This document shows positions 6,178 through 37,639 of a stretch of 37,639 bases of DNA, piece after piece. Numbering within the stretch: the stretch's first letter is position 1; every line of letters starts with the position of its first letter. The notes beneath the pieces were generated by a model. That model searched no databases, was not told where the DNA came from, and was given only the letters and a program-made list of their open reading frames with translations. The position numbers were made by a program, and so were the translations under genes. Source of the DNA: a virus (Duplodnaviria > Caudoviricetes). The DNA lies in the IMG/VR virus record IMGVR_UViG_3300044759_000067, positions 1 through 37,639 of that record; one strand, given 5' to 3'.

Positions 6178-6209
6178 GCAGACGCCTCGCGATATGATGT
6201 CGATGACGA

Positions 6210-6836
6210 ATGACGAACGAAGAACGCAAGGAACGAAAACGAGCCAAGGACCGAGCCCGGCACGCGGCGAATAAAGAGAAACTCAACGCGAAGAACCGCG
6301 CCTATCATGCGGCCAAGCGCGAGGAGATTCTCGCAAGATCCAGAGCCCGATACGCCGAGAAGAAAGCGCACGACCTTGATCGGAACAGACTTCGGAGACG
6401 TGCCAATCCTGAAGTCGGTCGCGCTTACGGCATCGCGTACCGAGCCGCCAACCCTGAGAAGTGCAAGCAAAGCGCGCGAGCTTCCCGCCTGAAGCATTGG
6501 GATAAATTCCAGCAGTGGGTTGAGCAGAACCGCGAGAAATTGGTCAGACAAGCGGCAGCACGCGCTCGTGCGAATCCTGCCAGTAAACGTCGGGCCAATG
6601 CGAAGCGTCGAGCCCTGAAGACCAGAGCGATGCCGTGCTGGGTCGACCACGACGCGATCGACGCTCTTTACCGGCTGGCCGATGCCCTGACGCGAGACAC
6701 AGGAATCAAGCATGAAGTGGATCACATCGTGCCGCTCAGCAACCCTCTCGTGTGTGGCCTTCATGTCGCCTGCAATCTTCGAGTCGTGACACAGCGCGAA
6801 AACCGAAGCAAAAACAACAAGCTCATCGCTGCCTAG
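6210..6836 (+). CDS. Free-standing HNH endonuclease (antisense to the late operon)
   Basis: 208 aa; HEVDHIVPL...VCGLHVACNLRVVTQRENRSKNN; lower GC than neighbours. Confidence 0.88.
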   Translation: MTNEERKERKRAKDRARHAANKEKLNAKNRAYHAAKREEILARSRARYAEKKAHDLDRNRLRRRANPEVGRAYGIAYRAANPEKCKQSARASRLKHWDKFQQWVEQNREKLVRQAAARARANPASKRRANAKRRALKTRAMPCWVDHDAIDALYRLADALTRDTGIKHEVDHIVPLSNPLVCGLHVACNLRVVTQRENRSKNNKLIAA

Positions 6837-6853
6837 GTCTCGCCATCTCGCGC

Positions 6854-7159
6854 TTACTTCCTGGCCTTCCTGGCCGGCGTCCTGGCCTTCGTGACTTTCG
6901 TGGCTTTCGTGACCTTCGTGGGCTTCGTGGCCGTCCTGGCCTTCGTGGGCACGCGCGGGGTGGCGGTGGTCCTCGGCGGCACGGGGGCCGACGCCTTGAC
7001 GGGGGCCGGCGGCGGGGTCGCCGTGCGGTGCACGAACCGGATGGCGACGAGGTTGTCGGCCGCGTCGGGGGACACCTCGTAGGTGTCGCCCTCGTGATAC
7101 TCCTGGCCGGCGTGCGTGTGGTACTTCAGCGCCGTCACCGTCACCGTGTCCTTCGCCAT
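6854..7159 (-). CDS. Small basic head-associated protein with histone H1-like Thr/Lys/Ala/Pro tail
   Basis: 101 aa; GGGAGG RBS; C-terminal TKPTKVTKATKVTKARTPARKARK encoded by 9-bp tandem repeats (about 6888-6932). Confidence 0.7.
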   Translation of the reverse strand: MAKDTVTVTALKYHTHAGQEYHEGDTYEVSPDAADNLVAIRFVHRTATPPPAPVKASAPVPPRTTATPRVPTKARTATKPTKVTKATKVTKARTPARKARK

Positions 7160-7177
7160 GCGCGGGGCCTCCCGGCG

Positions 7178-7756
7178 TTACGGCAGCACGCCGTAGATCA
7201 GCTGAATCCCGTGCGGGTCCGGCGCGTCGCCCTGATACCGCGTCAGGGTCAGATCGTGCGCCCGCTCGAACTCGTCCCACGCCTGCTGCACGCCCGGATA
7301 CATCGCGTTGCCGTAGTCATCGCCGAGCAGGAGCCCGCCCGGTTTGACGAACGGCGCCCAGAGCGCCAGGTCCGCGCGCACGCCCTCGTAGGAATGGTCC
7401 GCATCGATGTAGAGGTAATCCAGCGGGCGGTCCCACCACGGCGCGGCGTCAGTGGTGGTGCTGGCAATCAAACGCACGTTCGCGTTGACGCCGGCCTGAA
7501 TCAGATGACGCGCACACGCGAGCATCATCCAGGGCGACGGATTGGCGGCCGTGGCCTCGGCGGCCCAGTGATCGACACAGGTCAGCGTGCCACCCCAGCG
7601 ACGAATCGCCAGGGCGACCGGAATCGCCGACGCGCCCTGGAACGATCCCAGTTCCACGCAGACCACGGGCCGCACCTGCTCGACGAGCGCCAGGATTTTA
7701 TCGCCGTGATTGAACCAGCCCGGCGCGGCGGCGCGCGTGGGGTCAACCGCGAACAC
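7178..7756 (-). CDS. Class I SAM-dependent methyltransferase (Methyltransf_24-like)
   Basis: 192 aa; VELGSFQGAS, CVDHW, YIDADHSYEGV, KPGGLLLGDDY. Confidence 0.88.
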   Translation of the reverse strand: MFAVDPTRAAAPGWFNHGDKILALVEQVRPVVCVELGSFQGASAIPVALAIRRWGGTLTCVDHWAAEATAANPSPWMMLACARHLIQAGVNANVRLIASTTTDAAPWWDRPLDYLYIDADHSYEGVRADLALWAPFVKPGGLLLGDDYGNAMYPGVQQAWDEFERAHDLTLTRYQGDAPDPHGIQLIYGVLP

Positions 7757-7934
7757 GCCCCACCTCGGTATACCCGCGCGCCTTCAGCTCCTGAATCAGC
7801 GCGGCCTGCGCCACGGCGAACAGCAGCGCCGTGCCACTGAACCCCGCCTCCGGCGGCGGCAGGAGCTCCACGATCTGCTCCGCGTCAGGCGCAGACGGCG
7901 TCGACGGCGACGGCTCGATACGTGGTTTGGCCAA
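7743..7934 (-). CDS. Hypothetical small protein
   Basis: 63 aa; AAGGAG-like RBS inside the upstream GT gene; overlaps both neighbours. Confidence 0.5.
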   Translation of the reverse strand: MAKPRIEPSPSTPSAPDAEQIVELLPPPEAGFSGTALLFAVAQAALIQELKARGYTEVGRVRG

Positions 7935-8499
7935 TGTGCCCGATCTCCTTGGACAGGTCGTGGTCGATCCAGATGGTGTAGCCGGCGGCGCCGAGGCCGC
8001 GACAGAACATCACGTCTTCGCCGACGTCGCCGCCGAGCTCGTTGAGCCCGTGCCGAAACCACGGCCGGCCCAGGCCCTGCACGACGTCGGTGCGCATGAG
8101 CATCGCGCCCATGCCGACATAGTCGACGGCCTCCAACCCCGTCGAGGCCGCCGTCGTGGCAATGCGCTCACCATCCCGCGCCGCGGTAAACAGCCCGGAC
8201 GGTTGCCGCACCACGTAATTGCACGCGACGATCGGCTGCTCGTGCCAGGCCAGCCGAATCGCGGTCTCGGGCGGGACGCTCATGTCGGTGTCCAGCCAGA
8301 GCACATGCGTCGCGCCTTGCTTGATCGACGCCTCGAGGAACCACTCGCGGCCGACGTGGATGTAGGTCGAGGCCACGAACCCGAGCGTCACCGTCGCCCA
8401 GGGCCCGCGCTCGCGCGTCTTCGCATAGAGCTGCGCGACATCCACCGCGAAGGCGGCCGGCACGGTGTCCCGGGTCGGCCCGCCAATCGCCAGCCTCAC
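7885..8499 (-). CDS. Glycosyltransferase, GT-A fold (GT2-like)
   Basis: 204 aa; THVLWLDTDM (DxD), GMGAMLMR, GEDVMFC, IGHIG. Confidence 0.85.
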   Translation of the reverse strand: MRLAIGGPTRDTVPAAFAVDVAQLYAKTRERGPWATVTLGFVASTYIHVGREWFLEASIKQGATHVLWLDTDMSVPPETAIRLAWHEQPIVACNYVVRQPSGLFTAARDGERIATTAASTGLEAVDYVGMGAMLMRTDVVQGLGRPWFRHGLNELGGDVGEDVMFCRGLGAAGYTIWIDHDLSKEIGHIGQTTYRAVAVDAVCA

Positions 8500-8508
8500 G
8501 ATCCGCCT

Positions 8509-8697
8509 TCAGGCATCGGCCGTCACCGTCACCAGCGTGAGGGTCCGCGTGGCGCCGACCGCGGTCGGATACCGCAGCGTGGCGGCCTCGACCTCGGCCA
8601 GGGCCGTCGCCTCGTCCACCGCGTCGACACAGACGGGCTCGTACGCCACCGACGCGTCGCGATGGGTGTACGCCGCCTGGAACAGATACCGCGGCAT
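8509..8697 (-). CDS. Hypothetical protein
   Basis: 62 aa; start overlaps the stop of the upstream HNH gene. Confidence 0.55.
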   Translation of the reverse strand: MPRYLFQAAYTHRDASVAYEPVCVDAVDEATALAEVEAATLRYPTAVGATRTLTLVTVTADA

Positions 8698-9263
8698 CAG
8701 CTCGCCACCTTCGCACCTTTGGCCCGATTGCAGCGCCCGTGCGCGAGTTGCACGTTCGCGTACGCATGCACGCCGCCCTCAGCGATCGGCACGATGTGGT
8801 CGACTTCCCACCGGCTCGTCACATCGACCTCACGCTGGCAAATGCCACAGATGCCCTTGGCGCGATCGAAGACGACGCGGGGATCGACGGCTTCAACGAA
8901 CACCGCCCGGAGCATCGCCTGTCGTTTGTTCTCGCGCTCCGTGCATCTGGCACGATTCACTTTCTTCCATTCGCGATTCCGGAGCCGTTGCTTTTCGACT
9001 TCCTCCGGCCGCTGTTTATGGTGCCGTTGTCGCTGGCGGAACTCAGGGTCTTGCCACCGGCGCCGCTCATACTCGCGCCTCGCCTCTCGTTTCTCGCCAG
9101 TCAGCCGTCGAAAGTGTTCGAGTGCTTTCTCTCGTCCGCATGTTACGCACATGAATGACGAGACCCACCGCTGGTCAATGTGCCCGCCGCGTTTGCACGG
9201 CTTGCCGGTGAAGTAATGCGTGAGCCCGGCAGCCTTCGCGGCTTTCCTGCTGATGACGACCAT
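8697..9263 (-). CDS. Free-standing HNH endonuclease
   Basis: 188 aa; N-terminal YFTGKPCKRGGH...CVTC and C-terminal CGIC...VDHIVP..GG.H...NVQLAHGRCN; AGGAGG RBS. Confidence 0.9.
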   Translation of the reverse strand: MVVISRKAAKAAGLTHYFTGKPCKRGGHIDQRWVSSFMCVTCGREKALEHFRRLTGEKREARREYERRRWQDPEFRQRQRHHKQRPEEVEKQRLRNREWKKVNRARCTERENKRQAMLRAVFVEAVDPRVVFDRAKGICGICQREVDVTSRWEVDHIVPIAEGGVHAYANVQLAHGRCNRAKGAKVAS

Positions 9264-9359
9264 TGCTTCCTCCTACAGAAGCTCCTAGTCGAATTGTGCG
9301 CGCCAACCTGCTAGGAAACAGGGATTCGGGAATGACCCTAGGCGCGCACGTTGAAGCGC

Positions 9360-11285
9360 TTACGCTCCGGTGTAGGCACATGCCGTGATATAGCGGACAG
9401 CAGCAGTCCTCGCACGAATCCACGTGATCATGCGTTCGGCTCTCAAACCGACAAGATTTCGCTGCCACAGCGAGACGTAGACGGTCGTCGCGTCCACGGT
9501 GTCGGTCGGGGCGCTGTCCATCTGGACCGTCGCTTCCCGGCTGACATCGATCCGCACGCCGCCTTCGTCGGCGACCAGAATCGACGGCGCATGCACGAGA
9601 ATCACGCGCGTCGACACGTTGTTGCTGACGACGACCGGCATCCCGAAGAGCGTCCCACCTTGCGCCGTCATGCCCGGGAAGAGCGGCTGCCCCAGCGCGT
9701 TCAGCGACACGGCCAGCCCGAAGGCATTCGAATCACTCATCAGCCAGACCGAGCCCTCGAGCGGAATGCCGGCCGCCGTGAACACCGCGATCGACGCGGC
9801 CAGGTCAGCCTTCGCCGCCGCGGCCGTGGTGCCACTGGCCGCCGCCGTCGACGCGCCGTTGGTGATCGACGCCGGCGACACGTTGGCCGCGACCGCGACC
9901 GCCGGGTCGTTGAACTGCACGTCGAGGAACTGGCCCATGCCCGCGATCATTTCCTCGCGCACCAGCGCTTCGGCCGAGGGCGAGGAGAGTTTCACGAGCT
10001 CTTCGGAGAGCACGATGATGCCGGCCGCCTTCGCAAACGGCACACTCACCGTGGCGAAGTCGGCTTTCGTCACGGGTTTCGGTTTGTTCTGCCCGACCCA
10101 GCCGTAGGTGCCGCCGGTCGTCTGCGCGGGCACCGACACGTTGAAGGGCACCTGGCGCAGGCCAGGAATCCGCCCGAGCAGCGTGCGCGGCCGCAGCATC
10201 TCGAGGAACTCGTTCAGCGGCTGGGTCACGACGAGCGGGCCGGCCCACGTCGAATCGGTCGTGGTGCCCGCGGCCACGGCGGCCTTCGTGCGCCACATGT
10301 GCTCGACCATCTGCTCGACTTCCGGCGTCGAGTCCTTCCACTGCTTGGCGTACTGCAGCGTCTGGTAGGAGTCGCCGTGGCCGGCGGCCAACGCCATGCA
10401 CATCCGGGCGAACGCGGTGCCCTTCGGCACGGTCGGCGTCACGCGAATCACCGGCACGCCCGCGCGCTGCTCGGCGGCCAGGACCGGATCGGTGGTCATC
10501 GTGATCGGCGTCGCCTTGACGAGCGTGAGCTTCTCCTGCTCGTGGAGGCGCACCAGGTGCGCATCGAGGCTCTTCACCTCGGTCGCGGTCGTGTCGTAGT
10601 CGTCCGTCTCTGACGCATCGAGCGTCCGCCCCTCGTCGGCCGCTTTCGTCATGATGGCGGTCAGCCGGGCGGCCTGTGCCGCGCGCGTGTTCTGAAACTG
10701 CGTGATCTGTTCCTGAATGGTCATCGCACGTCCTGTCCGTGCTGCACCCGTGGCGCCGGGCCTGGTGAGGGATGCGACCCTGGCCTCGGTGCCTGGCGCG
10801 GCGGAGGACGCGGTGTCGCAGGACTTGATGGCGGCGATCGTGGCGCCGGCGTTGGCCGGCACGACCACGAGCGACAACTCGAGCACTTCGGTCTTCGTGA
10901 ACCGCAGGCCGCCGGTGTCTTTGTTCCGGGCCGGCGGTTCGAGCGCGCGGAAGCCGATGGACACGCCGGTAATCAGCGGCGGCTCGGCGCTCAGCGAATC
11001 CCACGCTTCGTCGATGCGGGCCTTCACGACGCCGGCGCGGTCCACCGTGGACAGCACGGCTTCGAACGGGACGCCGGCGGGGGTCGGCGTGCCGAAGGAC
11101 GCGCGGCCGATCGGTTGGCGCGTGTCGTGAAAAAGCAGCAGCGGGAGCGGGTTCTTGAACGTGACGCCGAGCGGCTCGATGACGTCGCCGACGCGGTCGG
11201 TCTCGGGCGTGGTCGCCAGGCCGACCAGGCGGCGCTGGGGCGCATCGACGGATTTGATGTGGAGAAACGCGTAGGCGCGCTGCAC
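9360..11285 (-). CDS. Prohead protease - major capsid protein fusion (HK97 fold)
   Basis: 641 aa; N-terminal protease motifs (DRVGDVI, LLFHD, VSIGF, ELSLVVVPAN); capsid domain with WVGQ.KPKP, LSEEL, LFGMPVVVS, GLRAER. Confidence 0.92.
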   Translation of the reverse strand: MQRAYAFLHIKSVDAPQRRLVGLATTPETDRVGDVIEPLGVTFKNPLPLLLFHDTRQPIGRASFGTPTPAGVPFEAVLSTVDRAGVVKARIDEAWDSLSAEPPLITGVSIGFRALEPPARNKDTGGLRFTKTEVLELSLVVVPANAGATIAAIKSCDTASSAAPGTEARVASLTRPGATGAARTGRAMTIQEQITQFQNTRAAQAARLTAIMTKAADEGRTLDASETDDYDTTATEVKSLDAHLVRLHEQEKLTLVKATPITMTTDPVLAAEQRAGVPVIRVTPTVPKGTAFARMCMALAAGHGDSYQTLQYAKQWKDSTPEVEQMVEHMWRTKAAVAAGTTTDSTWAGPLVVTQPLNEFLEMLRPRTLLGRIPGLRQVPFNVSVPAQTTGGTYGWVGQNKPKPVTKADFATVSVPFAKAAGIIVLSEELVKLSSPSAEALVREEMIAGMGQFLDVQFNDPAVAVAANVSPASITNGASTAAASGTTAAAAKADLAASIAVFTAAGIPLEGSVWLMSDSNAFGLAVSLNALGQPLFPGMTAQGGTLFGMPVVVSNNVSTRVILVHAPSILVADEGGVRIDVSREATVQMDSAPTDTVDATTVYVSLWQRNLVGLRAERMITWIRARTAAVRYITACAYTGA

Positions 11286-11341
11286 AGCCTCTGAGGGTAG
11301 AGCCGGTGCCGCTCAGCCGGGGTTGATTAGGAGGGAAACCC
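11286..11341 (-). promoter_or_regulatory. Putative late promoter for a leaderless/short-leader capsid transcript
   Basis: Minus strand: TACCCT (-10-like) 8 nt before the GTG start, with TTTCCCTCCTAATCAA upstream, right after the RHH gene. Confidence 0.35.
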
Positions 11342-11536
11342 CTACCGCGGCAATTGCAGCCGCAGGAGCGATCGCACGAGCGACGAGACGGATTGATCCC
11401 GCCGTTTCGCCAACTGCACCAAGCGATCGTAATCCCGCTCCGGCAACCACGTACTGACCCGGGTATGCGGGTCCGGCGCGCGAGGCCGGCCGCCACGACC
11501 GCGATCCGGCGCCACGGGTCCCAGCGGTTTCGTCAT
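11342..11536 (-). CDS. Ribbon-helix-helix (CopG/Arc-like) DNA-binding protein
   Basis: 64 aa from ATG 11536 (ATGA overlap with TerL stop); RVSTWLPERDYDRLVQLAKRRDQSVSSLVRSLL. Confidence 0.75.
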   Translation of the reverse strand: MTKPLGPVAPDRGRGGRPRAPDPHTRVSTWLPERDYDRLVQLAKRRDQSVSSLVRSLLRLQLPR

Positions 11537-13215
11537 CGCGGGCCTCCCAGCACGACCATGGTGTACGTCGGCGCCAGCGTCGCCACCACGCGCGACTCGA
11601 CGTCGAGCATCATCACCAGCGACACCATCCCGTCGACCTTCTTCGACGAGGCGCCGCGCGGCTTGACGATCTTCTCGTTCCCCGCCGCATCGGTCGCCGT
11701 CTCGGTGTTGTCCGCACAGAACCGCAGGATCGGGTGCCCGCCGTGATGCAGCGTGCGGTTCAACAGCCGCCGGTGAAACACTTTCATCGCGGGCCCTTGC
11801 GACAGAAACCCCTGGCCCATCGGCGTCACCGGCAGCCCGGCATCGACCAGGTGGTTCTGCACCGACTGCCCCTGGAAGAGGCGGTCGAGGTTCACGCCGC
11901 GCAAGTCGAAGCGTGTCGCATCGGCGATCAGCGCGTCCTCGATCGCGTCGTAGTCGATCGCGTTGCCCGGCGTGGTCGTGAGCCAGCCCTGGCGCGCCCA
12001 CTGCTGATAGAGCTCGCGGTTCGGGTTGCGCTCGTTCGACAACTGCCACTCCGGGACCCAGAACCGCGCGGCCACGTCGAGCGCCGCGGGATCCTCCGCG
12101 CACGCGGCGCCGTAGACGACGCACGACAGGTCGCTGACCGACGAGAGGTCGAGGCCGCCGTACACCACGCGCCCCGCGAAGGCCTCCGGCGTCCACGGGG
12201 TGGCGTGCCCGCGCTGCTCGTCCCACACCGCGAGGTCGATCGCCCGCGTCACCTGGCGCACCCACTGGTTCAGCCGGTACCGGCGGAACGCGTTCTGCTT
12301 CGCCGGCGACTGCTGCGCCTCGCGGCACTCCTGCGCGAACGTGTCCGGGTCGATCGTCACGCCGAAGGACGGGTTGGCTTTCTGCCAGATCGCCGGGTCC
12401 GTCCAGTCGTCGTCGACCGCCGCCTCGAAGATCAGCGCGAAGAACGCCCAGTCCTGAATCTGGTCGGTGAGGACCTTGCGCGCGTAGTCGTACTGCTCCC
12501 AGCCGATCGCCGTCTCGTCGTAGACGCCGGCCGTCGACACGGACAAATCCATCGGCTGCCGACGCGAGGATCCCGCGTACGCGAGCACGTCCCACATCTG
12601 CCGGTTCTTCCAGGCGTGGAGCTCGTCCTTGATGACGCCGTGGGCGTTGATGCCCTCGCGGTTCTCGACATCCGCCGACAACGCGACGAGCTTGGCGGCC
12701 ATGCCGGGGTACGCGATCGTCTTGCGCGAATCGACGACCTGCAGCCGCTTGCGCAGATCGGGCGACTGCCGCACCATGCTCGCCACTTCGGCGTAAATGA
12801 TCCCGGCCTGGCCGCGGTCCACCGCCGCCGTGTAGACCTCGGCGCCGGGTTCGTCATCGGCGACGAGCAGATACAGTTCGAGGCCGGCGGCCATCGTCGA
12901 CTTGCCCTGTTTCTTCGGCACCCAGATCCCCCCGCGGCGGAACCGACGCGTCCCATCGACCCGTTTCCACCCAAAGAGCCGGCGCAGCGCGTGCGCCTGC
13001 CAGTCCAGCAACGCAAACGGCTGCCCGGCCCACTGCCCCTTCGAGTGCCGCAGGAACCGGACGAAGAACTCGACGATGCGATCGGCGGCGGCGGAATCGA
13101 ACCAACAGCCATCGATCACCGCGCGCACGTCCTGCGCGTTTTCGATCAGCGACGGATCGTACCCGCGGGATCGCGCACGCCGCCGGGCCGTCGCCCAGTC
13201 ACACGCGCGGACCAT
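11533..13215 (-). CDS. terL: Terminase large subunit
   Basis: 560 aa; VPKKQGKST (Walker A), IKDELH (Walker B), GGLDLSSVSD and KVDGMVS nuclease motifs. Confidence 0.95.
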   Translation of the reverse strand: MVRACDWATARRRARSRGYDPSLIENAQDVRAVIDGCWFDSAAADRIVEFFVRFLRHSKGQWAGQPFALLDWQAHALRRLFGWKRVDGTRRFRRGGIWVPKKQGKSTMAAGLELYLLVADDEPGAEVYTAAVDRGQAGIIYAEVASMVRQSPDLRKRLQVVDSRKTIAYPGMAAKLVALSADVENREGINAHGVIKDELHAWKNRQMWDVLAYAGSSRRQPMDLSVSTAGVYDETAIGWEQYDYARKVLTDQIQDWAFFALIFEAAVDDDWTDPAIWQKANPSFGVTIDPDTFAQECREAQQSPAKQNAFRRYRLNQWVRQVTRAIDLAVWDEQRGHATPWTPEAFAGRVVYGGLDLSSVSDLSCVVYGAACAEDPAALDVAARFWVPEWQLSNERNPNRELYQQWARQGWLTTTPGNAIDYDAIEDALIADATRFDLRGVNLDRLFQGQSVQNHLVDAGLPVTPMGQGFLSQGPAMKVFHRRLLNRTLHHGGHPILRFCADNTETATDAAGNEKIVKPRGASSKKVDGMVSLVMMLDVESRVVATLAPTYTMVVLGGPR

Positions 13216-13756
13216 CGGCCGCCGTCCGCTCCCGGCTCAGGAACGCCGTGAACGCATCGGCCCGCGGCGGGGCCGTCGAGGGCTTGTCGCTGGCCTTGGG
13301 CGGCGGCGCCGTCGGGTCGAGCGGCAGACTCAGGCTCGCCCGATCCGCCGGCGACAGGCCGAACAGCGCCGCGAACCGCCGCATCTGGTCCGCCGCATCC
13401 CGCGCCATCTTCACGAGCGCGTGCGCCTGCTGGAACCCGTTCGGGGTTTCGATGAGTTCCCCGTCGCGCGTGCGCATCAGCCCCTCGAGCCGCTTCTCGA
13501 ACCGCATCCAGCGCGCCGCGGCCTGGCAGTACGCCGCAAACTGCAAGACGTCGAGGTCGGTGAGCAGTCCCAGCCGGGTGAGCTCGGGTGCGCGGCGCTT
13601 CCATTCCGTCTTGGCCATCGGTGACAGCCAGGACGGGCACGCGACGAGCGTCGTCGTGTGCGGCCGCGGCTCGACATGGCGCGTCCGCCGCTGCCCCGGG
13701 TTGCCCCGGAGCTCATTCAACGCGGTTGGGGTCCGTTTCGGTCCTCGTCGTCCCAT
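13199..13756 (-). CDS. terS: Terminase small subunit (P27 family)
   Basis: MGRRGPKRTPT..LRGNPG, PSWLS..AKTEW, YCQA, FGLSPADR. Confidence 0.92.
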   Translation of the reverse strand: MGRRGPKRTPTALNELRGNPGQRRTRHVEPRPHTTTLVACPSWLSPMAKTEWKRRAPELTRLGLLTDLDVLQFAAYCQAAARWMRFEKRLEGLMRTRDGELIETPNGFQQAHALVKMARDAADQMRRFAALFGLSPADRASLSLPLDPTAPPPKASDKPSTAPPRADAFTAFLSRERTAADGPRV

Positions 13757-14315
13757 GAACAATCCCCCTCACTTGCCCGAAACCTGCAGACACGCGCGAG
13801 CGGCCGCCCCGCGGTCCCTCGACCTCGGTGCCGTGAACTTTCATCCGCCCCCCCCGGTCGCCGGCGCCGGGGAAATTATTTTCTTGACTCGCGGAATATT
13901 TTTTATCACCGCCGCGCTGCTGCCGACGCGTGACCGCGCTGTGACACGAGGCACAGAGGAACCGGACGCGGTTCGGATCGCAGACGAGGTGGTGGTGCGC
14001 CCGCTCGGCCACGGTGAGCGGCGGGTCGTGGTGCAGCTGCAGGTCCTCGGTGGTCCAGACGCCGGCGGCCCGGCACTGGCTGTCGGTGGTCGAGGGCCCG
14101 GTGGGCAGCGCCGCACCGCACACCGGCGGAATGCCCTGCGCCAGGAGCAGGGTGGTGAACTGCGCGCGGAAGCGCACCCAGCGGGACGTGTAGCCGCGCT
14201 GGTGGCGCGAGCCGCGCGCCTGCTCGCGGTGCGCCTGGTGCGCCGCACAGTGGCCGAAGGGCACACGCTGGGCACAGCCAGGGGTGGCGCAGTAGGCGAG
14301 CGGGGTCGTCGGCAC
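13713..14315 (-). CDS. Terminase-associated HNH endonuclease (HK97 gp74-like)
   Basis: Start re-assigned to GTG 14315; CATPGC..HC..H, RGYTSRW, LHHDPPL, FLCASCHS; upstream of terS. Confidence 0.78.
   Translation of the reverse strand: MPTTPLAYCATPGCAQRVPFGHCAAHQAHREQARGSRHQRGYTSRWVRFRAQFTTLLLAQGIPPVCGAALPTGPSTTDSQCRAAGVWTTEDLQLHHDPPLTVAERAHHHLVCDPNRVRFLCASCHSAVTRRQQRGGDKKYSASQENNFPGAGDRGGRMKVHGTEVEGPRGGRSRVSAGFGQVRGIVHGTTRTETDPNRVE
13770..13910 (-). other. Probable cos/packaging-initiation region
   Basis: Lies between the HNH core and terS; AT-rich tracts followed by a G8 run (GACCGGGGGGGGCGGATGAAAG) and GACCGCGGGGCGGCC. Position is typical for HNH-TerS cos phages; cut site not determinable. 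Confidence 0.5.
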
Positions 14316-24938: not shown

Positions 24939-25082
24939 AGGCGATGCCTCCCACGGTTCAGGAACAACAAGCCAGACTAGCTGGCAAAGATAACAGGTGG
25001 TTTGGGACGGGAAGTTTTACCATAGCCGCAAGTGATTTCAAACCCCGCAAAACCATGCGGGGAGAAACCTACCGGACGATAT

Positions 25083-25520
25083 ATGCCCAAGGATAGATGC
25101 GCGCTCCTGCTCGTGCTGCTCCTCAGTTCGGCGTGCGGCGGCGATAGCCCCACCGCGCCGACCTCCACCGCGCCACCTGAGCAAGTCACGTCCCGCCTGA
25201 GCAACACGATCAGCGGCGGCGACCCCGTCTGCACCGTCGGCCCGCTCCAATTCGCCTGCAAGGTGTTCGGGCCAATCACCGCTCGCGAAGGGCGGCTGGA
25301 CGTCAAGCTGACGTGGCAGGAGAAGGACACCTGGCTGTCCCTGTGGGTGTATGACGAGAACCGGCAGATCACGGGCGGCGGCGACACCGTGAGCGGGGCG
25401 AACAGCAAGACCATCTCCGCGTCGAGCAACGTGCAGCCGGGCCGCTACTACGTCTACGTGTTCTGGTATTTCGGCTCTCAGATCACGCCGTTCGATCTCG
25501 AAATCACGTACCCGCGCTGA
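25083..25520 (+). CDS. Lipoprotein with a beta-sandwich (PPC-like) domain; moron-type
   Basis: Signal peptide and lipobox LLLVLLLSSA-C-GGDSPTAPT; C-terminal VQPGRYYVYV. Confidence 0.78.
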   Translation: MPKDRCALLLVLLLSSACGGDSPTAPTSTAPPEQVTSRLSNTISGGDPVCTVGPLQFACKVFGPITAREGRLDVKLTWQEKDTWLSLWVYDENRQITGGGDTVSGANSKTISASSNVQPGRYYVYVFWYFGSQITPFDLEITYPR

Positions 25521-25521
25521 C

Positions 25522-26610
25522 GTGGCGCTGCCCGCAGGATCCACTAAACTCGCCACCGGCATCTGGAGGCTGCCACGTCAGGGCGGCTTCGTCGTCCGCG
25601 CCGCCGTTGGCTCGTTGAGCACCGAGACGCGCTTCGACCCTGACGCCGACCTGAAGGCACTGAAGCGGTTCCGCACCGAGGAAACGGTCAGGCTGAGGAA
25701 CCGCGCCGGCCAACGGCCAGGCCGTGGCACGTTCGCCGCCGACGCTGACCGCTACCTCGCCCTGATCACACATCTAGCCTCGCACAGCAGCCAGAGCGCA
25801 GAGCTGCACGCGTGGGGCGCCCGCTTCGGCACGCGCCGCCGGCACCAGATCGCGGCCGCCGACGTGCGCGCCGCGGTCACGGCGTGGCATGCCGCGACGG
25901 TCGCGCCGAAGACGATCGCCAACCGGCTGCACACGCTGCGGCGGCTCTACCGCGTGCTCGACGGTCCGGACGTGCGGACGCCGGCCGACGGCGTGCGCGG
26001 CCCCCAGATTCATCAGGTGCCGCCCGTGCGGATTCCCGACGCGACGATCCAGGCCGTGGCCTTGGAACTCTCAGCCCGTGAGCCGAGGCTCCTGCTGGGA
26101 GCGAAGAACCGCGCCCGCTTCCTCGTGTTTGCCACGACGGGGCGGCGGCCGTCGGAGATCATGCGCGCGCAGCCCGAGGACGTGGACCTCGATCATCGGG
26201 TCTGGCGGCCCCGCGACGGGAAGGGCGGATGGAGCCCCGGCCTGGCCCTGAACGACGACATGATGCTGGCCTGGCGGCTGTTCATCGCGGCGGAGGCGTG
26301 GGGCGCCTATCGAACGGGGAACCTCGCGCGGTTGCTCCGGCGCTGCGGCTGGCCGGCGGGCGTACGCGTCTACAACCTGCGCCACACCGTCGGCATCACG
26401 CTCACCGAGCTCGGCGTGGACCTGCGCGACGTGGCCGAGCACCTGGGGCACAAGCGGCTGGAGACGACGCGGAAGATCTACGCCCCGGTGCAGGCCGGCC
26501 GGCAGGCGCGGGTCAGTGCCCTGCTTGAGGGTCGGCTTTGCCCCGACCCTTGCCCCGAAACATCGGAGCCTGAACGTGGAGATACGCAGAATCGCGTGAA
26601 AAAACGTTGA
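25522..26610 (+). CDS. int: Tyrosine integrase
   Basis: 362 aa; TGRRPSE (R), GKGG (K), YNLRH (H of HxxR replaced by Y), HLGH, TTRKIY (Y). Confidence 0.92.
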   Translation: MALPAGSTKLATGIWRLPRQGGFVVRAAVGSLSTETRFDPDADLKALKRFRTEETVRLRNRAGQRPGRGTFAADADRYLALITHLASHSSQSAELHAWGARFGTRRRHQIAAADVRAAVTAWHAATVAPKTIANRLHTLRRLYRVLDGPDVRTPADGVRGPQIHQVPPVRIPDATIQAVALELSAREPRLLLGAKNRARFLVFATTGRRPSEIMRAQPEDVDLDHRVWRPRDGKGGWSPGLALNDDMMLAWRLFIAAEAWGAYRTGNLARLLRRCGWPAGVRVYNLRHTVGITLTELGVDLRDVAEHLGHKRLETTRKIYAPVQAGRQARVSALLEGRLCPDPCPETSEPERGDTQNRVKKR

Positions 26611-26766
26611 AGGGTTGGCCCCGTCAATCCGGAGTCATTCGAGGGGTTCGGCCTGATTTCTGTAGGGGGAAGTGGCGGAAGCGCCTGGGAGTCGAACCCA
26701 GCCATCGTCACGGTAACTCTCAGAGGTCAGGCGCGTTGCCGTTGTTGCTCCGAGGTGTTGCTCCGA
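26538..26766. repeat. Integrase arm-type sites flanking attP core
   Basis: TTGCCCCGA at 26538 and 26550; TTGCTCCGA at 26745 and 26758; all in direct orientation. Confidence 0.75.
26673..26701 (-). other. attP core: 3' fragment of tRNA-Sec (selC)
   Basis: Minus strand CTGGG-TTCGACT-CCCAG (5-bp T stem), then GCGCTTCC-G-CCA (8-nt acceptor strand), matching the 8/5 fold of bacterial tRNA-Sec; the 5' half and anticodon are absent. Confidence 0.85.
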
Positions 26767-26779
26767 AAACGGCGGCCCC

Positions 26780-26860
26780 GACGCATCGGCGGATGAGGCC
26801 AGCCCCGTCAGCGGGGTCGACCGACGGTCCCTACGACCAGCCCCACCCGCCGAACTCGTC
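26780..26860 (-). ncRNA. Candidate structured RNA at the 3' end of the late operon
   Basis: 19-bp stem (26853-26835 with 26804-26786) whose five non-Watson-Crick positions are all G-U on the minus strand; two small inner hairpins. Confidence 0.45.
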
Positions 26861-27026
26861 AGTCCTCGATGACCGGCTGGCGCGGCGTCGGCCGCGGCGG
26901 ACTGTCCGGCCGGGCCGGCCGCTCGGGCTCCGGGTCCACGATGGGATGGGTCGGCCGCGGCGGCTCGGCGATCGGGGGCGTCGGTTCCGGGCGCTCGCGG
27001 TCGGGCGCCGGTTTCTGTTTGCTCAT
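26859..27026 (-). CDS. Small proline-rich protein (not in ORF track)
   Basis: 55 aa MSKQKPAPDRERPEPTPPIAEPP...VIED; GGAGG RBS and ATGA overlap with the upstream stop. Confidence 0.65.
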   Translation of the reverse strand: MSKQKPAPDRERPEPTPPIAEPPRPTHPIVDPEPERPARPDSPPRPTPRQPVIED

Positions 27027-27298
27027 AGCGAACCTCCGGGGTTGGTGGCAATCATGGCGAGCAGCGCGTCGAGGAACGCGGCGAACTGCGGCTTGACGAC
27101 GGCGCCGACCTCGAGGCTGCGCTCGTCCGACGTCATCGACTGCAGCTCGAGCGTGTGCGTCACGTCGTCGGGCGCGACTTCCCCGTCCTCGAGGTAGTAC
27201 AGCTTCGAGACGTACTTCTGCGCCTCGGGATTGCTGGCGAGCCAGTTGTCGAGCTCCTGCTGGATGTCGATCGGGTCGGCCATTCGGATCTCCTTCAC
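27023..27298 (-). CDS. Hypothetical acidic protein (start 27298 or 27283)
   Basis: About 86-91 aa; GAAGGAG precedes ATG 27283. Confidence 0.65.
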   Translation of the reverse strand: MKEIRMADPIDIQQELDNWLASNPEAQKYVSKLYYLEDGEVAPDDVTHTLELQSMTSDERSLEVGAVVKPQFAAFLDALLAMIATNPGGSL

Positions 27299-28539
27299 CA
27301 GTTCCCGCGCACCAGGTAGACGGGCGGGTCGTCCGTCAGCCGGATCGTCTGGCCGGCCTTCAGGGCGCCAGCCTTCAGCGAGGCGCCGGTCAAGATGTCA
27401 ATCACGTCCACGTCCATCGCGGCCTTGGCCTGCATGGTCACGCCGCCCTTGATGCCCATCGGCAGGCAGATGCTGCGTCCGCCGTCGACCGCCGCATACG
27501 CGCGCGTGACACCTTCGGACGCGCCGTCAACCCACTTGCTGACCTTCTCGAACGGGTGCCCGGCCCAGTGGTCGTTCTGCGGCGCCCAGTTCGGGAGGTC
27601 GCTCGGCAAGGCGTTGCGCGCCGCTAGGAGTCCCGCGGTGATGGCGTCGATGTTCGACACGTCGGACCAGTCTTTGTCGCACCTGACGCCGGCGGTACGG
27701 TCGTGGAGGCAGTACCCCCAGTGCGTCGCAATCCAGCTGACGATCGCCTGGCTGACCTGGCGGTGCGGGTCCGCGTCCGTCGGGTTGTTCCCGCCGGGCG
27801 TGCCGATGCCAATGGGTTCGTTGTTCAACGCTCCCTCCGGCACGCCGCCATACGAGAGCTGCTGCCAGGGCTGCCGAGCCGGCCGCCAGCCATCCTCGCC
27901 CATTGCCCTGTCGTAATGATTCGTCGAGAACGTGGCGACGCTGCCCTCGTACATCGCTTTGGCGTTGGCTTGCTCCGCGGCCTCGCCATCCCCGACCGGA
28001 CAGCTGATCGCGATGGGCACGTCCACCTTCGACCGGATGCGCTCGGCCAGCGCCCGCATCTGCTTGATGCCCTCCGACCCAGAGAAGCCGTTCTGCCACC
28101 ACTCGTTCGCGATTTCGATGCCGATCACCGCCGCGCGCCGGCGGACGGTGGTATCCGCGACGATGTCGCACACCCGCTCTTTCTCCCCGTAGCTCGGCGC
28201 CATGATCTGGGCGTCGCCGAAGCACGTCCAGAGCACGCGGATGCCGTTGGCGTACGCCACCTCGGTCGTGCCGTCGATCACCGCCGCGTAGTCGCCCCAC
28301 TTCGGGTCCACCTCGCGGCCTTCCCAGTACGGCTGCGCTCCGACACAGGCGAGCGCCCGGATGTAGTCCACGCCGTGTTCGGCCAGCCACCGGCAGTTCC
28401 GCTCCAGCGCTGCGCGGTCGAACTTGTACCGGTTCGCCGCGGCGAAGAGAGACGCGCCGACCACGAGCCAGGGCCCGCGGTCGTCCTTCATGACATGCCC
28501 GTCCAGGTGCGCGACGCCTGACGGGCCTACGACGGGGGG
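27295..28539 (-). CDS. Glycoside hydrolase, clan GH-A-like TIM barrel (probably reached by -1 frameshift)
   Basis: GVDYIRAL, GIRVLWT, IEIANE (acid/base-like), NHYDR and LNNEP (nucleophile-like); no convincing RBS/start of its own. Confidence 0.65.
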   Translation of the reverse strand, partial: PPVVGPSGVAHLDGHVMKDDRGPWLVVGASLFAAANRYKFDRAALERNCRWLAEHGVDYIRALACVGAQPYWEGREVDPKWGDYAAVIDGTTEVAYANGIRVLWTCFGDAQIMAPSYGEKERVCDIVADTTVRRRAAVIGIEIANEWWQNGFSGSEGIKQMRALAERIRSKVDVPIAISCPVGDGEAAEQANAKAMYEGSVATFSTNHYDRAMGEDGWRPARQPWQQLSYGGVPEGALNNEPIGIGTPGGNNPTDADPHRQVSQAIVSWIATHWGYCLHDRTAGVRCDKDWSDVSNIDAITAGLLAARNALPSDLPNWAPQNDHWAGHPFEKVSKWVDGASEGVTRAYAAVDGGRSICLPMGIKGGVTMQAKAAMDVDVIDILTGASLKAGALKAGQTIRLTDDPPVYLVRGNW

Positions 28540-29645
28540 AGTGGGTCGACCGGGTTCCCGAGCTCGGCCTGCAGCTCGCGGACGTGCTTGTCCTCGCTGG
28601 CCTGATAGCTCATGCCCGCGCAGTAGTCGTAGATGACGCGGCTCTGCCACTTGAACGTGCCCCAGTCCGGCGGCGGGTCGCCCTGTTTGATGCGGCCGGC
28701 CTTCACATACTCGGCCTGGTAGCGCGCCAGGCTCTGCTGCTGCGTGGTGTTCTCGTCGGGATACGGCTGCACGTCAATCTCCTCTGTCGGTGGTGGTTTG
28801 ATCGGCGGTGGCTTGATCGGTGGTGGTTCGATGACGATCGGCGGCGGCTCGATCGGCACGTCAGGATTCTGCGCCAGGTCGACACGCGGCGCGCGCAAGT
28901 CGAGCACGACGTTCAGCACGTACGTGATGGCATCGCCGACGACGCGCAGGCCGCCCGCCTGGGCGTCCCACATCGCATGCGGTGTCTTCACGTTCGGCAG
29001 CTCGTAGCCGACGGTCTGCAGCCAGGGCCGCACGAGCGTGCGCGTGTCGTCGTGGCTGACGACCCACGGCCCGTCCGGCGTCAGCACGACGACGGGGTCG
29101 ACCTCGTAGTGCTGCCACGTGGCCTGCAGGCGCACGACCAGGCCGTCGGCCCGGCCCGCCACGGGCATCCAGCCGTAGGTCGCCTGCAGCGGCTGGAACT
29201 CCGACCACACGACGAGCGCGCCGGCGAGCGACAGCTTGTCGTCAATGGCGCCTTCGCTGAGGGTCACGCCATCGCGGACGACGCGATGCGTGAGCAACGC
29301 GTTGCCGGTCAGGTGCGCCTGGTGCCGGCCAGTCGGCTCCATCGCCGGGCAATAGGTGTCGGGGAACGACAGGCCGTCGCTCGTGTAGGTGCGCTGCTCA
29401 GACGTGTTGGTGCCGACCCAGCGGCCGCCGCCGAGCGCCACGGTATTGAACGGGACATGAAACAGGCGTGTGCCGGTCTGGTGCCGCAGGTAGCCCTCGG
29501 GGTCGAGGTACGCGACCGTCGCAGTATCGAGCCAGCCGGGATACTGGCCGCGCACGTCGAGCAGGTGCCCGTCGAGATAGAGCTCGCCGAAGCCATGCAC
29601 GACGTGCTGGGCGTCCGGCGACAATTTTGGGTTCGCGGGGTTCAC
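28527..29645 (-). CDS. Beta-rich (propeller-like) protein with Pro-rich linker and small C-terminal domain
   Basis: About 372 aa from GTG 29645; (I[EK]PPP)n linker; internal GAGGAG-N6-GTG at 28772. Confidence 0.65.
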   Translation of the reverse strand: MNPANPKLSPDAQHVVHGFGELYLDGHLLDVRGQYPGWLDTATVAYLDPEGYLRHQTGTRLFHVPFNTVALGGGRWVGTNTSEQRTYTSDGLSFPDTYCPAMEPTGRHQAHLTGNALLTHRVVRDGVTLSEGAIDDKLSLAGALVVWSEFQPLQATYGWMPVAGRADGLVVRLQATWQHYEVDPVVVLTPDGPWVVSHDDTRTLVRPWLQTVGYELPNVKTPHAMWDAQAGGLRVVGDAITYVLNVVLDLRAPRVDLAQNPDVPIEPPPIVIEPPPIKPPPIKPPPTEEIDVQPYPDENTTQQQSLARYQAEYVKAGRIKQGDPPPDWGTFKWQSRVIYDYCAGMSYQASEDKHVRELQAELGNPVDPLPPS

Positions 29646-29656
29646 ATCGCCACCGT

Positions 29657-29857
29657 TTATCGGAGGCGTCCAGGTGCGAACGTCCCATCCCACAAGCCGA
29701 AGGCGCCCAAGAGCCACAGCACGAGCACCAGCACGACGACGACGCGAATCACGGTCTTGATCGTCGCGTCCATCGGCAACGCGTGTTCGATGAGGTAGAG
29801 CACGACGCCGACCACAATCAGCACGACGAGCAGACTAATGAGCCAGGACAGGGTCAT
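29657..29857 (-). CDS. Two-TM small membrane protein, holin candidate
   Basis: 66 aa with two hydrophobic helices separated by 'LPMDATIK'; located after the tail genes. Confidence 0.65.
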   Translation of the reverse strand: MTLSWLISLLVVLIVVGVVLYLIEHALPMDATIKTVIRVVVVLVLVLWLLGAFGLWDGTFAPGRLR

Positions 29858-29964
29858 GTCAGCACCTCTTTTGCGGGTTCGGCGTGGACGTCATCGGCCA
29901 GTTGTTCCAGCTCCTCGACCAGTTGCAACCGGGCTTCGAGCTGGGCGCGCGTGATGGGCGGCAT
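29854..29964 (-). CDS. Very small hypothetical protein
   Basis: 36 aa MPPITRAQLEARLQ...; coupled by TGATG and ATGA overlaps. Confidence 0.45.
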   Translation of the reverse strand: MPPITRAQLEARLQLVEELEQLADDVHAEPAKEVLT

Positions 29965-30254
29965 CAATCCACCGTCCCGGCCGGCAGCTGCCCGTCGAGG
30001 CAGAGCTTGTTGAGAATCTTCTTCTGCATCGAGACCGTCGTGTTGTTCGACGTGTTGAGCGTCTGCATCAGGTCCTTCGCGGCGGTGCCCGTGTAGCCGC
30101 ACTCATAGACCTTGCCGTCTGGCAGCACCGCGCCACCGGCCGCCTCCCGCACCACGATCTGAATGGTTGAGTCGGTGATGTCGAACAGGATGCGCGCGAC
30201 GCGGAAGGTCGTCGGCGGCGGCAACGGGTCGGCCAGGGTCAGCGTATCGGCCAT
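29964..30254 (-). CDS. Hypothetical protein downstream of tail fibre
   Basis: 96 aa from ATG 30254 (MADTLTLADP...). Confidence 0.65.
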   Translation of the reverse strand: MADTLTLADPLPPPTTFRVARILFDITDSTIQIVVREAAGGAVLPDGKVYECGYTGTAAKDLMQTLNTSNNTTVSMQKKILNKLCLDGQLPAGTVD

Positions 30255-33200
30255 CGGCCATGCCTTTCTGCTTCGAGCGCCTCGACGCGCGCGGCGAGCG
30301 TCTGCACCGCCTGCACGACGGCGCCGAGGATGGGCCGGTCGGCCAGGGTGAGATACCCCTGCGCATCCTGCCCGACGGCGTGCGGCATGACCGCCTGGAC
30401 GTCCTGCGCCAGGAACCCGCCGTAGAGATGGTCGCGCTCGAGGCCCGAGTCGTCCGTGTAGCCGAACAGCACGGGGCGCAACTGCTGCACGGCGGCCAGG
30501 CCGTACGGCAGCGGGGCGATGCGGTCTTTCAGCCGCGCATCCGAGACCGACGACAGGTTGCCGCTCGCATCGAAGGTCGCCGTGCCGGCGCCGAAGGCGG
30601 CGTGCCGGACGCTGCCGGTCGTGTGGAGCTGCGCGCTCGGCGCATTGGTGCCGATGCCGACATAGCCGACCGCACCCGTGGCCGTCTTCACGATGAAGTA
30701 ATGCGTCGACTCGGCCAGGTTGCCGCAGTAGAGCACGTAGCGGGCCGCGTCGGTGCCTTCGCTGAGAATCTTGGCGCCGAAGCCGCCGGACGTGTTGGTG
30801 TTCTGGAACCGCAGCGCCGGCAGGGCCAGGGCGCTCGTCACGTCGACGGTCGTCGCGGGGAACATGCCGATGCCGACATTGCCCGACGAGGTATCGACGA
30901 CCAGCTGCGTCGTGTTGACGAGGAAGTCGCCGGCCCCGCCGAGATTGACCGTGAGCGGCGACCCCGTGGCCGCGGTGAGACTCAACGCGCCGCTCGACAG
31001 AATGGCCGGGACCGTCAGCGAGGTACTGAGGACCGGCGCTCCGGTATAGAGCGGGTCGGTGCCGTTCGACCAGAGGACCTGATTCGCGGCGCCGATCGCC
31101 AGCCGCGCCCACTTCGGCGTGCTGTTGCCGATGAGCAGGTCGCCGCGGACCACCGAGGCCGCCAGCGCATCGCCGTGCGAGGCCGAGAGCAGGTTATGCG
31201 CGGCGGCGGTCGCCGTGATGCCCGTCAGGGCGCTGCCATCCGTCGACCAGCTGACATCCGTGCCATCCGACCGCAGCATGGTGCCCGCGGCGCCGCGCGC
31301 GACCCGCGCCCAGGCCGGCGTGCTGTTCGCCACCAGGACATCGCCGCGCACGACGGTGGCGGCGACCACATCGCTGTGCGCCGTTGAGAGCAGCGTGTGC
31401 GCGTTCGCGCTGGTCGCCGGCGAGAGCCCCCCGCTCGTGCTGCCGACGGCGCCACTGCTGCCACTGCTGGCCTGCTCCCCGAAGATGATGCGCTTCCACA
31501 AATCCGTCGCACTGTTGGCCGGCACGTCCTCGGTGCCGCCAATCAGGTCGAGCGTCGTCTCGAGCAGCACCTCGGCCCCGGTCGGGATGACGACCGTCTC
31601 GGTCGCGCGCACAAAACAGGTGAGCGCGTCGATGCCGAGCACCGGAAAGTCGACGACGACGGTGGAGCCCACGGCAATGGTCTCGACGTAGGTCGTCACC
31701 TGCGGCAGTTTCAGCCGCGGCTGGTGCTGGCGGATGAGCGCCTCGGCGTAGGCGGTCGCTTCCTGCCAGTCGAGAATGTGCGGCGCGAAATCCACGCGGG
31801 TCCAGGGCCGCGCCCCGAACTCGTCGCCCTCGACATAGACCCAGGTCGGAAAGAGCGCGTCGTAGTCGGTGCTGATCAGGACGCCGACCCCGACGGCCGT
31901 GCCCGTATGCACCAGCGTCGGCGGATAGACCTCGCTCCAGGTCCACTCGAACGCATCGACGCCATAGATGCCGACCGGATACGTGGTCGCGCCCACCGTG
32001 ACGGTCGCCGGGCGGGTCGGGAAATTTTGATAGTGCTGCGGAAAGACTTGCGTGACGCCGTCGCCGGTCCACGCGTCCGCCACATGCAGCACGCCGTTCG
32101 GCCCGAAGACGACCCATTGCGCGCTGCGGTAGTCGAAGCGCTGCAGGTCGTAGGCGGCCGCGCGCACGTTGGCATTCGCCGCGGACAGCGTGACGCCGCT
32201 CGCGACCGAGCCGACCGCCCACATCTTCAGCTGGCTGTCCTGGTCAACGCGGCGCACCCAGCCGGTCTGCGTCGCCAGGTAGTCGACGAATTGCTCGGTC
32301 GTGAGCCAGGGCGAGGTGATCGTCGTCAGCGTCGGCCCCTCGTCCTGCGTCGGGTCGAGCGTGATGCCCATCGGCACGAGGGTGCCGTCGCAGAGGTACA
32401 CGAGCGTGTCCCGCAGGGATTGCGGCGGGATGATGGTGTTGCTGAGCGCGCGCTGCAGCTGCTGGTTGTAGTCCTGGCAGGTGACCTGGCAGAACGTGCC
32501 CTCGCCGCGGTGCACCAGATGCGAGGTCCCGGCAGGGTTCGCAATCGTGCCGGCCCAGCGGATGGTGCCGGCGACTTCAATCTCGACGACCTGGTCGTCC
32601 TGCGGGATGTAGGCGCCGGTCGGGTCCTTGACCGTGAAGGTGGCCGTCCCGATGCCGTTGATGGTGGACGACCAGCGCAGGGCGCTCACGAGCGACGTGC
32701 GGTCGATGTCGTCGATCCAGACGATGATGGTGTTGCCCGGCGGTTCCACCGGCTCCGACGGATCGGTATCGTGGATCGCCAGCGCGACGAAGGTCTGCAC
32801 GCGCGCGGGTGTGCCGGCCGGCACACTCTGCAGCGCGATCGTGTCGGTCGCCACGAAGCCGACGACATGGGTCGGGTCGGTATCGGACCCCGTCGCCGGA
32901 CTCGTCGCCCCGCTGATGGTGACCGTCGGCGTCGTGGCCGGCGTGGCGCCGTTCTTCCGCAGCGTGAACGTGTAGGACGTGCCTGCGCCCGGCGCATCGG
33001 CGTAGGCGTACAACGCCGACGCCCAGTACGCCCCGTCGAGCGCCAGCTGCGCGGCGGCCTCCGTCGTCGTCCAGTGCGCATACGCGAACGGGGTCCAGTT
33101 CGTCGCGCCGTTCGGAATCACGCTCGAGAGACTGATCCCCGTGAGCTGCGAGGTCCCGTCGACGTCGGCGACGAGCTTGGTCCCGATACTGACGTGCGTC

Positions 33201-37455: not shown

Positions 37456-37622
37456 CAGCGCACTCCCGGTGCGAGATTCTTGCGGATGAGTTCGCCCCAT
37501 TCGTCCAACAGGAGCGCGACGACGTCGTCAGGGCAGGACTCGTACTCGTCCCAGGACCAGCCTAGGAAGCGACAGATGGCGAGACCAGTGAGAGTTTCGG
37601 CTCGCCACTCGGGTCGTTTTTT
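37455..37622 (-). CDS. -1 frame extension of the tail chaperone (gpGT-like C-terminal part)
   Basis: The -1 frame reads KRPEWRAETLTGLAICRFLGWSWDEYESCPDDVVALLLDEWGELIRKNLAPGVR*; its TGA overlaps the tape measure ATG (TGATG). Confidence 0.8.
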   Translation of the reverse strand, partial: KKRPEWRAETLTGLAICRFLGWSWDEYESCPDDVVALLLDEWGELIRKNLAPGVR

Positions 37623-37639
37623 TACTGCTCCATCGCCGC
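37498..37639. repeat. Terminal direct repeat, copy 2
   Basis: Same sequence as 1-142 with one mismatch; implies a 37,497 bp circular unit. Confidence 0.95.

Follow-up and report, generated by a model that had tools for sequence, protein, structure and literature searches.

A putative low-level −1 frameshift joining a predicted propeller protein to a GH-A-type enzyme in a sediment phage

Programmed −1 frameshifting in phages is well known, best from capsid and tail genes. Here, we report two overlapping open reading frames (ORFs) on the minus strand of the viral record IMGVR_UViG_3300044759_000067 (the window, meaning the whole stretch of 37,639 nucleotides (nt) that was analysed), in which a predicted surface-type protein, ORF-A, and a predicted glycosidase, ORF-B, are probably joined by a programmed −1 frameshift of low level giving a fusion of 783 amino acids (aa). 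What is new is the cargo, the position of the gene and the C-based motif. The strongest evidence, drawn from two full sequences and one partial sequence, is a coding signal in the −1 frame between the stop codon of ORF-A and the first ATG of ORF-B. In the following, L denotes loci, P proteins and X sequencing runs, and L001/L012 is the locus of a related phage used for comparison of the junction. The elements of the junction are these:

28527..29645, minus strand: ORF-A, 372 aa, GTG start, with a predicted beta-propeller, a Pro-rich linker and a C-terminal helical domain
28533..28539, minus strand: candidate shift site C CCC CCG (Pro-Pro)
28536-28533, minus strand: C_CCN tetramer, the sole part of the shift site common to L001 (C CCT)
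28527..28532, minus strand: 6-nt spacer TCG TAG, formed by the final Ser codon and the stop of ORF-A and unchanged in L001
28497..28526, minus strand: hairpin whose first base directly follows the stop, −17.7 kcal/mol (L001, same position, −15.4)
28492..28527, minus strand: 12 codons of the −1 frame from stop to ATG, GPSGVAHLDGHV, which form conserved strands at the N-terminus of the enzyme
27295..28539, minus strand: ORF-B, −1 frame, 414 aa from the shift site, GH-A-type barrel and C-terminal beta-sandwich
28489..28491, minus strand: internal ATG (Met17 of the −1 frame), the ORF-B start according to gene callers and a possible second start
28648..28650, minus strand: in-frame GTG within ORF-A, a rival ORF-B start, present in L001 too

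ORF-A ends with the codons CTC (28541-39), CCC (28538-36), CCG (28535-33), TCG (28532-30) and TAG (28529-27), while the −1 frame is open from 28773 to 27295, overlaps the first ORF and reads PPVVGPSGVAHLDGHVMKDDRGPW. The initial annotation had placed a frameshift at the heptamer C CCC CCG (28539-28533), followed after 6 nt by a strong hairpin (28526-28497), with the −1 frame open to 27295, and all of these positions, the strength of the hairpin and the extent of the frame were confirmed. The poly-C heptamer as the signal was not borne out, as the junction of L001 reads GAC CCT TCG TAG and only the C_CCN is common to both; the description of the site as non-canonical was overstated, for C_CCC_CCG formally fits the X_XXZ_ZZN definition (PMC4066793).

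The window and L001 junctions align without gaps and share the −1 offset, a C_CCN on proline, the TCG TAG and a stem at 6 nt. The two loci are otherwise divergent: L001/L012 are 62–63% identical to the window at the amino acid level in ORF-B, and the N-terminal part of ORF-A differs, whereas the upstream protein of L001 ends in the same helical domain before the proline codon and the stop, with the enzyme in the −1 frame. Two further sets of contigs extend the comparison. The X9 contig covers 28192-28811 and differs at 59 letters; since all 11 of its gap letters lie away from the junction, the −1 offset is kept there. From X10, two contigs flank the junction with the middle missing, and their loose ends read ...CCG GAC CCT C and I-A-R-L-D-R-R-V-M-R. 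The offset is thus seen in L001 and X9, the tetramer in L001 and X10, and the heptamer in neither L001 nor X10. CCT makes up 6% of Pro codons in the window phage (22/351) and 5/73 in three L001 frames; because it is otherwise rare, its presence at the slip position in L001 and X10 weakly fits selection for a shiftier codon. Across 7,475 codons of 15 window genes there were 103 in-frame C_CCN tetramers and 4 heptamers, and a hairpin of −15.4 or lower at a 6-nt spacer followed two of these tetramers and one of these heptamers, the latter being that at 28539-28533.

An indel in the run of six C (G on the plus strand), for which the initial annotation had proposed a check of the reads, was not found. 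Contigs of three of the four runs (X1, X2 and X4) read through the six C without a gap or a differing letter, and a JGI contig, L033, possibly from the same sample, is 100% identical to the window locus, so a homopolymer or assembly error is ruled out. All of the run evidence consists of contigs and not of raw reads; X1 and X2 possibly represent the source sample, X4 comes from another study and has a contig depth of 2.6, and X3 had no piece bridging the run. Transcriptional slippage on the six C is unlikely, as L001 is without such a run, and recoding or readthrough of TAG is ruled out, since TAG closes ordinary genes in this phage and downstream of the stop the 0 frame shows little conservation (5/12).

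Over the 12 codons from stop to ATG, the window and L001 differ by 9 base changes, of which 7 fall at third, 1 at first and 1 at second positions of the −1 frame (binomial p=0.008 for the third-position bias). The encoded peptides are identical at 10/12 positions in this frame versus 5/12 and 4/11 in the other two, and the corresponding stretch of X10 reads IARLDRRVM. After the ATG, 27 of 48 changes between window and L001 are at third positions. The same N-terminal motif is found in frame in 35 distant loci, where it stands behind a signal peptide or another domain, and the pattern G-x-V-R-L-x-G is well kept in these homologs (G8 in 33/35, G14 in 28/35, and R, H or K at position 11 in 30/35); at position 10 the split loci have Ala, whereas 30 of the 35 others have Val. 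The alignment omitted duplicates and truncated contigs (L003, L009, L012, L019, L021-L023, L026, L030-L032, L035, L036, L038 and L046), and also L033, from the phage itself, and L052 (866 aa). Among structural matches, 47 of 50 align from residue 10 of the ORF-B model or earlier, that is, before Met17. The stretch ahead of the ATG is therefore likely translated in the −1 frame, because its substitutions carry the third-position bias and its codons form strands shared with solved enzymes.

The ORF-A structure model is all-beta with a predicted local distance difference test (pLDDT) score of 96, and its top Foldseek matches are propellers at a template modelling (TM) score of about 0.55; no PHROG match was found for ORF-A. 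Its helical domain, of about 75 aa, has the pattern YPDE...W..R..YD..AG...KH..E and received no convincing assignment from Pfam, PDB or Atlas, with peptidoglycan-binding leads scoring 0.80 or less. ORF-B was modelled as a (beta/alpha)8 (TIM) barrel with a C-terminal beta-sandwich (pLDDT 94.6, and 97 for residues 11-20), and both Foldseek and structural alignment placed it closest to structures of glycoside hydrolase (GH) families GH140, GH5 and GH164, with a Z of 29.5, a root mean square deviation of 3.2 and 368 aligned residues against 8t9w. Enzymes of clan GH-A are retaining glycosidases defined by a (beta/alpha)8 barrel, an Asn-Glu after strand 4 and a Glu after strand 7. In ORF-B both the modelled barrel and these residues are present, according to our count of the strands:

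28102..28104, minus strand: Glu146 (N145-E146, after strand 4, strand 138-143), predicted acid/base; N145-E146 invariant in 41/41 aligned sequences
27817..27819, minus strand: Glu241 (after strand 7, strand 236-239), predicted nucleophile; conserved in at least 90% of the 41 aligned sequences

ORF-B is thus a predicted glycosidase of GH-A type, and the likeness to this clan that the initial annotation had read from the N-terminal motif is upheld by the modelled barrel, the fold matches and the two glutamates. The likeness to GH140 apiosidase-like, GH5 and GH164 enzymes (8t9w, 5msy, 3kzs, 4qfu, 6t6g and GH5 mannanases) lies in the barrel and the C-terminal beta-sandwich, whereas ORF-B is only 8–14% identical to these structures. 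None of the 41 members of the ORF-B family had a Pfam GH family match at E 0.01, and although GH140/Apiosidase (PF13204) provided the best fold matches, its hidden Markov model (HMM) matched none of the 41 either.

Nine proteins matched ORF-B, six of them closely (P0003-P0008) at 53–100% identity including its own entry, the other five at 53–82%, and gene callers start all six at the same Met17. The two parts of the locus are also found joined in a single frame. P0095 holds the helical domain in frame with the same enzyme family (E 6e-43), and among 112 proteins in-frame joins to an enzyme-like domain were found for the helical domain in 9 and for the propeller in 4. This homolog comparison, which the initial annotation had suggested, thus showed both the −1 offset shared by L001 and in-frame joins in relatives. 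The helical domain is C-terminal in 22 of the 41 proteins that carry it (3 of these from the window phage), and judging from these homologs the 0-frame product is for this reason also a natural protein end. In L004, L007, L005, L027, L008 and P0009 the enzyme domain stands behind many interchangeable N-terminal modules, which are lectin-like (by sequence appearance), PKD, PE repeats, or a lipoprotein signal with PF13620; by its varied contexts the enzyme domain is mobile cargo. The N-terminus of L005 was ruled out as an ORF-A homolog (best BLASTP E 0.19). P0081 (111 aa) and P0104 (99 aa) have the helical domain, then the start of an enzyme-like motif and an early end, and are possible further split or truncated cases. 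A general split after the helical domain was not found, as L016-L018, L063 and L069 continue in frame, and in L058-L062, L064 and L065, which stop after the helical domain, no enzyme motif was seen in the −1 frame. Scans of viral contigs with single proteins found nothing, searches for longer forms found none at 946-2700 aa and one distant protein of 748 aa, hence no close in-frame fusion (weak evidence), and INPHARED phages gave no match to ORF-A or ORF-B. In 401 genomes of the order of G001 the helical domain was found in 6 and the propeller in 5, with no further split locus seen.

The putative hairpin ranks high within its surroundings, in the top 7 of 1,202 30-mers in the window ORF-B and the top 10 of 1,223 in the L001 gene, and it was the strongest 30-mer following the stops examined (30/30). 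Of its 10 pairs, 7 are invariant between the window and L001, 1 has changed on both sides, 1 on one side and 1 is broken. Among the in-frame homologs, 2/35 reach −15.4 at the equivalent 30 nt, or 4/35 when a shift of 3 nt is allowed.

Most ribosomes would stop at the UAG and yield the 372-aa protein of propeller and helical domain, while at the last proline codon or codons a minority would move back by one base and continue into the 783-aa fusion with the predicted enzyme. The hairpin would reach the mRNA entry of the ribosome while tRNA-Pro on CCN re-pairs with CCC, possibly by a tandem slip on C CCC CCG in the window and by a single-tRNA slip in L001. Typical spacers are 5–9 nt (PMC5009743). 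In E. coli, six tetramers reached 4-fold or more above background when a pseudoknot was present, ranging from 0.26 to 5.6%; C_CC.U and C_CC.C belong to these six, at the low end, and CCN codons were weaker than UUN and AAN; C_CC.C_CC.G does not figure among the three heptamers given there as failing the 2-fold threshold (PMC4066793). Because C_CCN motifs are weak in E. coli, the efficiency is probably low, from below 1% to a few percent. The shift may serve to hold the enzyme-bearing copies of a surface-binding protein at a low, constant ratio to those without the enzyme, and the fusion would act on an envelope glycan of the host, probably one of the Acidobacteriota, at adsorption or release. 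The enzyme need not be an endolysin, because L001 has a separate Hydrolase_2 gene directly upstream of its ORF-A.

Several observations weigh against a programmed frameshift. The comparison of full junction sequences covers two loci, the window and L001, X10 being partial with a gap at the junction; the heptamer is not conserved, and the P-site codon GAC of L001 cannot re-pair in the −1 frame. C_CCG alone was only 1.8–3.6-fold over background in E. coli (PMC4066793), and an upstream Shine-Dalgarno (SD)-like stimulator of the listed types was found in neither the window nor L001. Synonymous resampling folds equally well in 476/5,000 cases for the window (p 0.10) and 1,106/5,000 for L001 (p 0.22), so the peptide alone goes far to explain the hairpin; pair shuffles of the two sequences match the hairpin result in 261/500. 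The fold z of the window hairpin is −2.79 when the 30 nt are taken alone, but three longer stretches give −0.47, −0.35 and +0.31, L001 folds differently in a 131-nt context, and the 3′ arm of X10 (GAT AGA) would break two pairs unless its 5′ arm compensates. Finally, a start-capable codon stands at Met17 in 6/6 of the close proteins, and it is ATG in all 3 with visible DNA, versus Met in 2/35 of the distant homologs.

This last point favours a rather unlikely account in which the locus is two genes with translational coupling, where ribosomes that terminate on ORF-A would unfold the hairpin, thereby freeing the SD-like GGACGG of its 3′ arm, and start again at the ATG at 28491, giving a 398-aa enzyme without its first strands. 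The pairing of GGACGG with the anti-SD is −6.0 and is buried in the window stem; for scale, it is −8.3 to −9.2 in three strong genes and −5.1 at the ORF-A start. In the Atlas model the 398-aa form is still folded, with a predicted TM score of 0.90. However, the pairing is only −2.8 in L001 and none is visible in X10, the conservation of Met17 is partly built in because gene callers write M for any start codon, and a restart leaves unexplained both the third-position bias with its 10/12 identity ahead of the ATG and the same motif in X10. The initial annotation had noted that the ATG falls inside the conserved N-terminal motif, which stands, and that it lacks a good ribosome-binding site, which in view of the −6.0 is only partly true. 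The coding signal ahead of the ATG would be explained if ORF-B began at the GTG at 28650 within ORF-A, with an overlap of 124 nt. The enzyme would then be made on its own, with its first strands intact behind a leader of some 40 aa that is under no selection, and both the GTG and the open −1 frame are present in the window and L001. We regard this as improbable: the SD is weak (−4.7 in both loci), the GTG is imposed by the Lys-Trp codons of ORF-A (W48 invariant), the overlap is better kept in the 0 frame (32/40) than in the −1 frame (23/40), and the position of the hairpin is left unexplained.

An equally low probability attaches to a short bypass, by which peptidyl-tRNA-Ser would leave UCG with UAG in the A site and land 11 nt on in the −1 frame, on UCA in the window or UCG in L001, for a 779-aa fusion ...LPPS-GVAHLD. 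The Pro-Ser before the stop indeed recurs in both loci as CCG TCR directly behind it, and the TCG TAG is identical. Bypassing of the T4 gene 60 type has matched take-off and landing codons with a stop after the take-off; here they would be UCG/UCG in L001 and UCG/UCA in the window. The window landing codon is, however, only wobble-matched and lies inside the stem, the 6-nt spacer fits the geometry of slippage, and hops are reported to be far less frequent than slippage (PMC5009743). That the locus is a formerly fused gene broken by an indel, with ORF-B decaying or unused, is very improbable; in-frame fusions do exist in relatives, but ORF-B is of full length with catalytic-type residues in the six close proteins, its changes after the ATG favour third positions, and the −1 offset is common to divergent phages. 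The minority frameshift fusion proposed by the initial annotation has thus gained comparative support from the offset, stop and hairpin of L001, the coding-type substitutions and the structural equivalence, and an additional start at the ATG may operate beside it, as frameshift and restart can coexist.

The proposed −1 frameshift resembles the Ig-like extensions of T3/T7 gene 10, Lactobacillus A2 and Listeria A118/A500/PSA, in that both append a mobile domain near the gene end by a minority shift, and some phages encode Ig-like domains in frame while others have them out of frame (PMC5009743). Joins of the ORF-B type likewise exist in frame elsewhere, P0095 being one of them. Listeria PSA also shifts on a proline codon, but proline shifts of the PSA type are +1 and that of the window is −1 (PMC5009743). 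The carrier in the Ig-like systems is a major capsid or tail protein and the cargo Ig-like, whereas here the carrier is a propeller and the cargo a predicted glycosidase of about 410 aa with a TIM barrel. The −1 signals of the IS3 family of insertion sequences (Z_ZZN or X_XXZ_ZZN with a 3′ structure) belong to the same motif class, with tetramer and heptamer forms both occurring, and the window spacer is within their 4–10 nt rule with a hairpin that starts with a G-C pair; the IS1/IS3 motifs named there as frequent are A- and U-based, not C-based, and the window product is not a transposase (PMC4066793). The gpG/gpGT chaperone frameshift of lambda likewise sets a product ratio by a −1 shift of low level close to the 3′ end of a gene (PMC5009743). 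In the window phage a chaperone site of the lambda type is separate, and the ORF-A/ORF-B site lies downstream of the tail fibre gene. The former is a canonical A AAA AAC at 125-119 (minus strand, gene 481-65) with a hairpin of −17.6 downstream, from which the open −1 frame leads towards the tape measure gene.

The window, a 37.6-kb sediment-phage record, has a GC content of 68%. It harbours genes for terminase, capsid, portal, tape measure, tail fibre and integrase, by which it is a temperate siphophage. The ends, 1-140 and 37500-37639, repeat each other with one letter differing near the edge, and the record is therefore probably a complete circular or permuted genome. Going by record titles, cellular homologs of ORF-B are from Vicinamibacterales and other Acidobacteriota in 13/17 loci, and since they come mostly from that phylum, Acidobacteriota is the likely host phylum. 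On the minus strand, the tail fibre gene and a small holin-like gene precede the site:

29657..29845, minus strand: 62-aa gene with two hydrophobic segments directly upstream of ORF-A, holin-like by sequence appearance

This gene has no Pfam match, and known endolysin families were found in none of the window ORFs scanned, a scan that covered all but some short ORFs. No sigma-70 promoter and no minus-strand terminator match was found within 26500-30300. Gene order is odd at 4789-13762 (minus strand), with terminase, a protease-capsid fusion (641 aa), HNH and modification genes and portal, then a collagen-repeat gene. Two glycosyltransferase-like and two methyltransferase-like genes at 1176-2657 and 7178-8499 (minus strand) lie within the head-tail block, where virion glycosylation is a possible role, and in L001 a methyltransferase-like gene (by sequence appearance) follows the enzyme gene. 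At 25032-25520 (plus strand) a lipoprotein-like gene without a family match adjoins the integrase and repressor.

A published phage frameshift that fuses a glycoside hydrolase or a lysin was not found in a literature search that left most subscription journals outside. If real, the catalytic cargo and the rarely used C-based motif would join the few −1 frameshifts that phages are known to use in genes other than those for capsid, tail and chaperone proteins. A wider reading, which we put forward tentatively, is that an Acidobacteria-type phage lineage grafts a whole unclassified GH-A enzyme onto a minority of its propeller copies, by means of a proline C_CCN −1 frameshift with a hairpin, in a gene block at the lysis position. 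If true, the rule of Ig-like domains, in frame in some and frameshifted in others, would extend to catalytic domains, and the window and L001 would provide a natural heptamer/tetramer pair for single-tRNA versus tandem slippage on proline codons. The fusion could then be a new kind of envelope-degrading enzyme of lysis or entry. Gene callers cut the enzyme at the internal Met in all six close relatives and would overlook the fusion. For the family as a whole, an uncharacterised group of glycosidases is indicated that is common to soil and sediment Acidobacteriota and their phages.

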